Positions 45,500-46,681 of a DNA stretch of 64,000 nucleotides are shown here, piece by piece. The stretch's first letter is position 1, and every line of letters starts with the position of its first letter. The stretch is from Raillietiella orientalis. Taxonomy: Eukaryota. Location: assembly GCA_036172245.1 (NCBI GenBank), contig JAYWIR010000009.1, forward strand, positions 4,216,001 to 4,280,000, given 5' to 3'. The notes under the pieces are model-generated. The model ran no database searches and was not told the origin of the DNA. It worked only from the letters and a program-made list of their open reading frames with translations. A program made the translations under genes and the position numbers.

Positions 45500-46681
45500 A
45501 CGTCACTGGACTCTCAGAGCGCGACAGGTGAGGGAAGAAGGCGAGTCTCCCTCACCTGCTGTTGGATTGTGCCATTGCGCAGTAAGCACAGTATGCTGTC
45601 CACGTACTGCCATTACTGCTTCCCCCCGCGTTATGGCATGTAGACGTTCTTTCTGCAGGCATACGATGAAGTCGTCCAGCAGCACCTGAAAGGCCTCGTG
45701 GACTCAGGACTCCAGGGCAGCGAGTGCCTGTTCGCCCTGAGTTGGGTGCTTGGGGACTTCCCGACGTGACTTTATCGGGAAAGGGCGCTACGTGAGGGGG
45801 CCTCCCGTCCTTGACGCACCGAGGATCAAGAGGCTCCAGGGAGGGTTCCTCAGGCGCACGAGGAACGGCTGCGCCGAGCATGTTGGCCGCCTGCGTGCCA
45901 GGCAGATCGAGGTCTGAAGGCGAGCTTCCTGGAAAGGAATTTTCCACGCCCTTGCTCATCTATCAGATGATGGACCAGAATCTGAGTGCCTCTCTCGCCG
46001 TGTGGCAGGAGTTCTGCAACCTCACGCTCATGGTCGTCATAGTCGTTATCAAGAAGTTCTGCAACGAGTACAGGAACAGTCTGCAGGACTTCTCACGCCT
46101 ACTTCCCGAAACGGGACTCCTTCTGGTTCTTCACGCGCCACCTGGTGGTGGCGGCGAACGATCTTTCGAGTCTGGTGGACAGCATGTCGGAGTTCGAACA
46201 CAAATATGCGAGAAGGAGCATCCTGCGCAGCGAAAACACGAGGATCTTTTCCGGGGTTGTCCAGTGCTCCAAGAACATCAGGAGGACCGCGTTGAACATG
46301 CTGATCAAGGAAGCATTCGTAGACCTCCAGGTCTCCTTGTCGAGGTCCATGGACTCAGGCCCAAAGGCGTCCAAGAAGGAGATGGACGTTTTTCTGGTGA
46401 CGTGCCAAGACTACTTCGCCGATTACAAGAGCCTGGACCCTCGCAACTACGAGGAGCTGTGCTGCGAGTATGTCGACCGCCTCAACATTCACATCTTCGA
46501 GGTGCTGCAGAACCCCGAGCTCCGGGAGCTCAAGAGCAAAAGGATAGCTGTGGAAAAGACCCTAAAGCTCCTGCTTAATAGAGTGCGCGCGATGTTCGAC
46601 CTGCACCCAGGGACGCTTTCTTCGGAGATCATGGACCTGATCAAGACTAGGATGTACTTCAAAGACAAAGACCAGAAGTGA
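45500..46681 (+). pseudogene. EXOC3: Intronless, disrupted exocyst complex component 3 (Sec6/EXOC3)-like sequence
   Basis: Joining frames gives CFPPRYGM*TFFLQAYDEVVQQHLKGLVDSGLQGSECLFALSWVLGDFP ... FSTPLLIYQMMDQNL ... IKKFCNEYRNSLQDF/HAYFPKRDSFWFFTRHLVVAAND ... LIKEAFVDL ... MDVFLVTCQDYFADYKSLDPRNYE. This is collinear with the Sec6 motifs CFPPxY, LxxNExxxLLxW, IxFQMxxQNL, LLEExFLDL and VDxICVTxEDYFxD. In-frame stops lie at 45641, 45767 and 45915, with frameshifts near 45800, 45920 and 46092. Confidence 0.8.

Follow-up and report, generated by a model that had tools for sequence, protein, structure and literature searches.

Expansions of the family of the exocyst subunit Sec6 (EXOC3) have so far been reported in vertebrates and in Branchiostoma (Boehm & Field, 2019; PMC6784791), and the mouse EXOC3 paralogues have been catalogued, with M-Sec placed at 22% identity to EXOC3L2 (O'Callaghan et al., 2018; PMC6080751). 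Rows of the Protein Atlas that name chordate Sec6 fragments are leads only. A full-text literature search turned up no paper on arthropod Sec6 paralogues among the matches listed, and we make no claim that none is in print. Here we describe a Sec6-like element in a 64,000-nucleotide stretch of Raillietiella orientalis DNA (GenBank assembly GCA_036172245.1, contig JAYWIR010000009.1, positions 4,216,001 to 4,280,000 of the forward strand), which is referred to as the window and to which all positions refer. The nucleotides 45584-46681 very probably represent a recently dead fragment of Sec6-family coding sequence (CDS). The relic would be an isolated, intron-free piece of a Sec6/EXOC3-family CDS that was cut at both ends and carries, as disabling lesions, a nonsense codon and three +1 frameshifts; most likely it does nothing now.

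The family assignment is anchored by the open reading frame (ORF) at 46043-46678(+), which matches the Pfam Sec6 profile PF06046 at E 4e-8 and 32.7 bits, clearing the curated gathering cut-off of 29.7, over positions 316-448 of the 537 in the hidden Markov model (HMM). A 41-residue piece at 45644-45766 adds a weak Pfam match (E 0.17, positions 139-176). Searched by phmmer against 1.84 billion protein representatives, the ORF retrieved 10 proteins at E<=1e-3 with identities of 22-33% (best E 1e-8), all 10 of which (P0001-P0010) are Sec6 by Pfam; no protein in that collection reached E 1e-10 or better and none exceeded 33% identity. With seven of these 10 Sec6 matches as queries, tblastn of the window gave colinear high-scoring segment pairs (HSPs) confined to 45575-46600, lying at 45575/45593-45766 in frame 2, 45801-45878 in frame 0, 45943-46092 in frame 1, and 46100-46600 in frame 2; residues 46-102 of P0010, for instance, align to 45593-45763 at 38.6% identity (E 2e-9). 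A custom animal Sec6 HMM of 699 positions was made from the 10 phmmer proteins and run on 2586 stop-to-stop pieces (at least 12 amino acids, both strands). Three pieces scored significantly, namely, 46043-46678 (E 2.8e-27, a value inflated because the members of the HMM had been chosen by that same ORF), 45943-46092 in frame 1 (E 3.5e-6), and 45644-45766 (E 4.2e-5), and the fourth-ranked piece was noise at E 1.6. Frameshift-aware alignment yielded identities of 105/333 with P0005, 96/345 with P0010, and 120/411 with P0002. Taken together, the fragment spans approximately positions 139-448 of the Pfam profile, or approximately 262-635 of the custom HMM, and no single open frame in it holds the full-length Sec6 domain (Pfam 1-537). 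On sequence grounds, the Sec6 homology, its distribution over three frames, and the lack of introns are genuine and lie well outside what chance would give. The initial annotation had read an intronless middle portion of Sec6 of approximately 350 codons across three frames and had named the Pfam profile, tblastn, and frameshift-aware alignment as the means of checking it; these converge on a significant Sec6 match, with colinear similarity over approximately 363 codons.

Structure-based comparison points the same way. A phmmer search of the PDB with the ORF found no match at E<=1; an alignment profile (A1) matched the structures of M-Sec (5B86) and yeast Sec6 (5YFP). The AlphaFold2 model of the ORF, computed from an 11-row alignment, is all-helical, with a mean predicted local distance difference test (pLDDT) score of 75 and a predicted template modeling (pTM) score of 0.70. 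The top chain returned by Foldseek for this model is the C-terminal domain of yeast Sec6p (2FJI; template modeling (TM) score 0.57-0.60, probability 1.00, E only 0.04), followed by COG4 (3HR0), another CATCHR protein, at TM 0.54, and the remaining chains are 14-3-3 with poor TM scores. As predicted by this model, the fold of the open part is a CATCHR helical bundle.

The fragment reads through frames 2, 0, 1, and 2 in that order along 45584-46678(+), leaving no room for introns (Table 1). Frameshift-aware alignment identifies four firm lesions, one in-frame TAG and three +1 frameshifts; the first and last pieces both lie in frame 2 because the three shifts sum to +3, and frame 2 is closed across the intervening 333 nt. 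The frame-0 piece goes undetected by the custom HMM alone and owes its placement to segments within linked HSP sets (P0005 residues 373-398 against 45801-45878, and P0002 residues 195-219). At the 3′ end, the matches reach residue 408 of 493 in P0010 and 715 of 787 in P0003, with a confident custom-HMM match to position 585 of 699; the alignments end short of the Sec6 C-termini, and therefore approximately 75-110 C-terminal residues are missing. The open, GC3-rich end of about 200 codons and the early stop that had been proposed for it both hold. Sub-profiles for the N-terminal 298 and the C-terminal 70 Sec6 residues gave no credible match in the whole window. The best sub-profile match, a piece at 293-379(-) tried as the C-terminal part, reached E 0.18 with a translation that is not Sec6-like, and was rejected. 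Also rejected was an upstream extension, tested over 45247-45583, in which only 1 of 15 shuffle tests had at most 1 in 300 shuffles reaching the score, and whose frame disagrees with the weak or inconsistent local periodicity. The count of about six lesions given by the initial annotation is accordingly reduced to the four firm ones, since the TGA at 45529 and the shift at 45565-83 sit in this non-significant extension.

Table 1. Positions of the Sec6-like pieces, their lesions, and nearby sequence features in the window.
Feature	Position	Strand	Basis or remark
Interspersed repeat of ~320 bp with A-rich tail	44646..44980	+	Inverted copy with T-rich end at 40145-40443(-), ~82% identical
Candidate upstream Sec6 trace, not significant	45310..45583	+	Alignment extends here for 2/4 queries
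Sec6-like piece 1a, frame 2, 19 codons, with CFPPRY-type motif	45584..45640	+	tblastn, translation
In-frame TAG directly after CFPPRY-type motif, in conserved region	45641..45643	+	Sequence; frameshift-aware alignments with 3/4 queries
Sec6-like piece 1b, frame 2, 39 codons	45644..45760	+	Custom HMM, positions 280-314
First +1 frameshift (2 to 0), in or beside CCC run	45761..45767	+	Alignment at 45761, 45767, or 45809 by query; periodicity switch
Sec6-like piece 2, frame 0, 48 codons, weakest similarity	45762..45905	+	tblastn linked HSP sets; codon-position composition
Second +1 frameshift zone (0 to 1)	45879..45906	+	Alignment at 45879, 45900, or 45906 by query; periodicity switch
Sec6-like piece 3, frame 1, 62 codons	45907..46092	+	Custom HMM, positions 390-439
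Third +1 frameshift (1 to 2), a single surplus base flanked by HMM positions 439 and 441	46093 (alignments 46093-99)	+	HMM, alignment, sequence
Open 195-codon Sec6-like stretch, within ORF 46043-46678	46094..46678	+	Pfam match, codon-position composition, model fold
TGA stop overlapped by donor-like GTGAG, ahead of usual Sec6 end	46679..46681	+	Sequence, HMM, alignment
Short repeat, 78% over 81 nt to 42333-42253, inverted; not colinear with the 320-bp pair	47345..47425		Self-comparison
Candidate retroposition tail (A10-T-A8 tract; AATAAA at 47857)	47921..47939	+	Sequence

The fragment carries a strong codon signature in the GC content at the first, second, and third codon positions (GC1/GC2/GC3). 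These values are 0.58/0.36/0.78 in 45584-45760, 0.67/0.56/0.77 in 45762-45905, 0.47/0.31/0.77 in 45907-46092, and 0.49/0.33/0.81 in the open part, and they are 0.48/0.41/0.76 in the neighboring FAM43A-like exon; the flanks of the fragment have a GC content of 0.54-0.59. Three of the four pieces thus combine a low GC2 (0.31-0.36) with a GC3 of 0.77-0.81, the exception being the frame-0 piece with its GC2 of 0.56. The phase of maximal GC flips exactly at the frameshifts placed by alignment, and the signal sets in sharply near 45580 and has faded by approximately 46720. Across 20-64 kb, long stretches of strong three-periodic GC occur only at 45591-46730, in three phase blocks, and in the FAM43A-like exon at 62571-63470. 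No periodic or homologous exon lies within approximately 17 kb upstream or 12 kb downstream of the fragment. Until recently, the fragment would have been constrained coding sequence with the GC3-rich codon usage of its host.

A contrasting explanation holds that this is a live exon of a divergent Sec6-like gene, in which the shifts are assembly errors, the stop is a splice donor, and the other exons are too diverged to recognize. The donor-like AA/GTGAGC at 46677-46684 and a cAG at 45580-45582 would suit such an exon, all shifts are +1 with the first in a CCC run, and the periodicity is as strong as that of FAM43A. However, the TAG at 45641, placed within a conserved motif, is not something that an indel error could create, the shift at 46093 falls outside any homopolymer, and the cAG lacks a preceding pyrimidine tract, unlike the acceptor of the FAM43A-like last exon (62557-63483(+); PID_2 E 3.6e-70), where a very strong pyrimidine tract and cAG precede. 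That exon is open for 327 codons with no frameshift in approximately 900 nt, so the assembly is not generally indel-ridden. Together with the lack of companion exons over the distances given above, these observations make a live exon very improbable.

How far the fragment has drifted, and when, can be approached from its distance to known Sec6 proteins. It is 19-26% identical to 12 Sec6 proteins over approximately 350 columns; these proteins share 24-53% among themselves, three close pairs excepted, and one of them, from a nematode, has 24-32% identity to the rest. Distances to Sec6 proteins are similar for the broken and open parts of the fragment (19-29% and 20-26% identity, respectively). 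In the open part, 17 of the 27 columns that are at least 85% conserved are retained, but of the 41 columns conserved at 60-85% only 7 are; retention in the broken part is flatter (8/24 and 17/44 in the same two classes), in part because the frame-0 piece aligns poorly.

The time since inactivation was gauged by simulating neutral substitution on the reconstructed frame, using the base composition of the flanks and a kappa of 2. The fragment has 1 in-frame stop in 363 codons. At a neutral divergence K of 0.03, the simulation produces a mean of 0.9 stops (P(<=1 stop) 0.76; 6.5% of residues changed), at K 0.15 a mean of 4.2 (0.08; 28%), and at K 0.20 a mean of 5.1 (0.035; 35%). Within this simple model, K since death appears bounded at roughly 0.15-0.2 or less and is probably 0.03-0.15. 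Since the simulated stop counts put K low, the fragment would have died recently, with post-death decay contributing a minor share of its divergence; and because a recent death is paired with no more than 19-26% identity to known Sec6, most of the divergence would predate it. The proposal of the initial annotation that the sequence diverged under selection before dying is supported by the GC3 periodicity that tracks the frames, the retention of conserved columns, and the stop-count simulation. We infer divergence under constraint before inactivation, because the broken and open parts are about equally distant, GC2 is kept low in most pieces, and the most conserved columns are preferentially kept in the open part. 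Nearly all of the divergence from known Sec6 would have arisen while the fragment or its parent was functional.

Several observations weigh against this account of a recently dead coding fragment. In the GC-rich part of the window, 195-codon frames are open in 2572 of 70830 cases (3.6%), so that the open frame is by itself weak evidence, because TpA is depleted there (observed/expected 0.41). The first 510 nt contain all four firm lesions and the last 585 nt are free of them (P ~0.05 if uniform), a skew that could mean that the 3′ part was constrained longer or is still used. Furthermore, the frame-0 piece is only weakly similar to Sec6, the lesions are known from the assembled sequence alone, and the simulation takes the present sequence as the ancestor in a simple model with neither indels nor CpG effects.

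The host lineage can be gauged from the FAM43A-like exon. Among the best 120 matches listed, the named FAM43A relatives are arthropods without exception, with 41-64% identity and no close relative among them. The mean identity of the host FAM43A to 15 arthropods is 51.6%, compared with species averages of 53.8-66.9%, and it sits on an end branch of 1.64, where the median is 0.49. Judged by this one gene, the host belongs to an arthropod-like lineage with a long branch and poor sampling. Because the host FAM43A is long-branched and long-branch Sec6 proteins come near the divergence of the fragment, a dead copy of a canonical Sec6 that evolves fast is no less plausible than a lost paralogue. On balance, there is close to an even chance that the host's own Sec6, evolving fast, gave rise to the locus as a dead-on-arrival partial copy, made by retroposition or by fragmentary DNA duplication.

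Somewhat more tentatively, the locus could be what is left of a separate Sec6-like paralogue that diverged in this lineage, was long functional, died recently, and may have intact siblings; such a history is compatible with the core claim of a dead Sec6-family fragment. In a maximum-likelihood tree, the end branch leading to the fragment has a length of 3.27 changes per column, the median being 0.55 and the value for the nematode Sec6 1.76, and this approximately 6-fold excess compares with 3.3-fold for the host FAM43A. When each sequence in turn is left out of the consensus, the fragment matches 25 of 51 highly conserved columns (49%) and 25 of 86 mid-conserved columns (29%), below P0003, P0006, and the nematode protein, the bona fide Sec6 sequences of greatest divergence, which match 54-66% and 42-56%, respectively. 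The lack of any relative above 33% identity among the protein representatives fits a paralogue as well, and known EXOC3 paralogues are comparably distant, as the 22% between M-Sec and EXOC3L2 illustrates (PMC6080751). Set against these points, the host lineage is itself long-branched and unsampled, the branch excess rests on a single comparator gene, and P0003, P0006, and the nematode are exceeded by a small margin after allowing for 6-20% post-death change. The fragment thus somewhat exceeds every genuine Sec6 of the small comparison set in divergence, by a margin compatible with a fast-evolving canonical parent. Dead-on-arrival copies of canonical genes are, moreover, the commonest kind of pseudogene.

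The search for siblings, on which a paralogue family would depend, came back empty. There is none in the window by tblastn, none among the 1.84 billion protein representatives, and none in JGI metagenome contigs, where a single-protein query gave 101 pattern matches with 0 relatives and an alignment query turned up 21 loci whose identities all fall at 23-33%. Of 975 candidates, 0 are relatives longer than the ORF, and querying the length band of 1379-3935 amino acids with alignment A1 recovered only two fused nematode proteins. The lineage-specific Sec6-like family envisaged by the initial annotation thus finds no support in these collections. It is rather unlikely, although conceivable by analogy with the vertebrate EXOC3L/M-Sec genes, that an under-sampled arthropod lineage evolved an intron-poor Sec6-like paralogue, which selection had taken to approximately 25-35% identity with canonical Sec6, and of which this locus would be a recently dead member with intact, possibly specialized siblings elsewhere. 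One further ORF, at 58356-59390(+) (345 codons), resembles the C-terminal region of Sec6 marginally and locally, was considered as a second decayed Sec6 trace, and was treated as noise (tblastn E 0.69, HMM score -4.5; shuffles reached the score in 2/200 and 1/200 for two of eight queries and in 14-134/200 for the other six). This ORF, which contains a short periodic segment at 59211-59360, is probably noise but could be a far more decayed Sec6-like trace.

The absence of introns invites a more specific origin, a 5′-truncated processed retrocopy of a Sec6-family mRNA made by long interspersed nuclear element (LINE) machinery. Consistent with it are 1.1 kb of coding sequence without an intron, a nearby retroposon-like repeat pair with A-rich and T-rich ends, a weak zf-RVT match at 42430-42945(-), and the A10TA8 tract with AATAAA downstream. 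Yet the intron lack may just reflect one large exon. A 5′-truncated retrocopy should retain the CDS 3′ end, which is missing here, so that no complete 3′ end is followed by a poly(A) tail, and the A-tract sits 1.24 kb past the stop. No flanking direct repeat was seen either: the sequences 45380-45600 and 46670-48100 share no word of at least 10 nt that could be a target-site duplication, their longest common word being one 9-mer off the borders. The retrocopy suggested by the initial annotation is plausible but less likely than not, its expected hallmarks being absent or ambiguous.

Capture or transduction of the gene fragment by a mobile element, with many genomic copies expected, would account for truncation at both ends and for the interspersed repeat copies that lie approximately 600-660 nt off on either side. 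The two repeat pairs do not line up as a single colinear unit, however, no second copy of the fragment exists in the window, and no transposase or reverse transcriptase domain other than the weak zf-RVT was found within 5 kb on either side, where 84 of 91 pieces of 50-99 amino acids and the longer ORFs were covered. Such a capture is quite improbable. The domain scan comprised 313 ORFs, that is, 84 of at least 150 amino acids and 145 of 100-149 amino acids from the whole window plus the 84 of 50-99 amino acids from 40-50.5 kb; the 7 short ORFs excluded lie inside the Sec6-like stretch. Its sole signal of a transposable-element protein is the zf-RVT match, which is sub-threshold (E 4.8e-4, 21.2 bits against a cut-off of 27.5), and self-comparison of the window gave only 5 repeat pairs of at least 60 nt; the "transposon graveyard" originally pictured around the fragment is not borne out by the protein domains.

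Among the repeats themselves, the element at 44646-44980/40145-40443 resembles a short interspersed nuclear element (SINE) or the 3′ end of a LINE, with no tRNA-like part detected by ARAGORN in 39-49 kb. A direct duplication of approximately 500 nt, with copies at 35674-36163 and 36677-37201 that are 77-83% identical, lies with its copies approximately 1 kb apart. The window as a whole shows a sharp switch in composition: positions 1-20000 have a GC content of 0.30-0.35 and a CpG observed/expected ratio of 0.47, while 28000-64000 have 0.50-0.62 and 0.98, with the TpA ratio of 0.41 noted above. Codon usage of exons appears to follow the region, with an AT-rich RNA-polymerase exon and a GC3 of approximately 0.8 in FAM43A and the Sec6-like stretch. 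In the GC-rich part, long ORFs that have neither a Pfam match nor codon periodicity are also greatly in excess on either strand (most of the 84 of at least 150 amino acids lie there), and they are probably chance ORFs because of the TpA depletion. Exon-sized ORFs stand isolated at 1253-1552(-) (RNA_pol_Rpb1_1, E 6.5e-9, below cut-off), 17980-18294(+) (PHD, E 3.6e-10), and 22946-23272(-) (LIM, E 1.2e-6), and these look like exons of intron-bearing host genes in the AT-rich part. A 393-codon ORF at 21109-22287(+) has no Pfam match and includes a short, strongly periodic segment at 21681-21860.

As it stands, the fragment is one more pseudogene, whose oddity lies in pairing a fresh coding signature with an extreme distance from every known Sec6. 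That combination would mean either that an exocyst subunit evolves very fast in the host lineage or that this lineage once had a second Sec6-like gene. If the latter were true, an independent arthropod Sec6 paralogue would add modestly but genuinely to our understanding of exocyst evolution.

Comparison with canonical animal Sec6/EXOC3 (PF06046) brings out both kinship and loss. The fragment follows the middle of the domain colinearly, carries the CFPPRY-type, FT.Y...N, EAF.DL, and DYF.DY motifs, and is predicted to form a helical bundle; it differs in its 19-26% identity, its stop and three frameshifts, the absence of any other exon nearby, and the loss of the N-terminal third (approximately 260 of 699 profile positions) and of the last 75-110 residues. 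With ordinary processed or fragmentary pseudogenes it shares an intron-free, truncated, and frameshifted state in a repeat-bearing intergenic region, but the hallmarks of retroposition are absent or ambiguous, and it stands unusually far from all known family members while its codon signature is fresh. The vertebrate EXOC3 paralogues (EXOC3L1/2/4 and TNFAIP2/M-Sec; PDB 5B86) are intact, intron-bearing, and expressed, whereas the fragment is broken; they belong to the same family, lie at a comparable distance from canonical Sec6, and include, in 5B86, a structure that the Sec6 profile itself matches.

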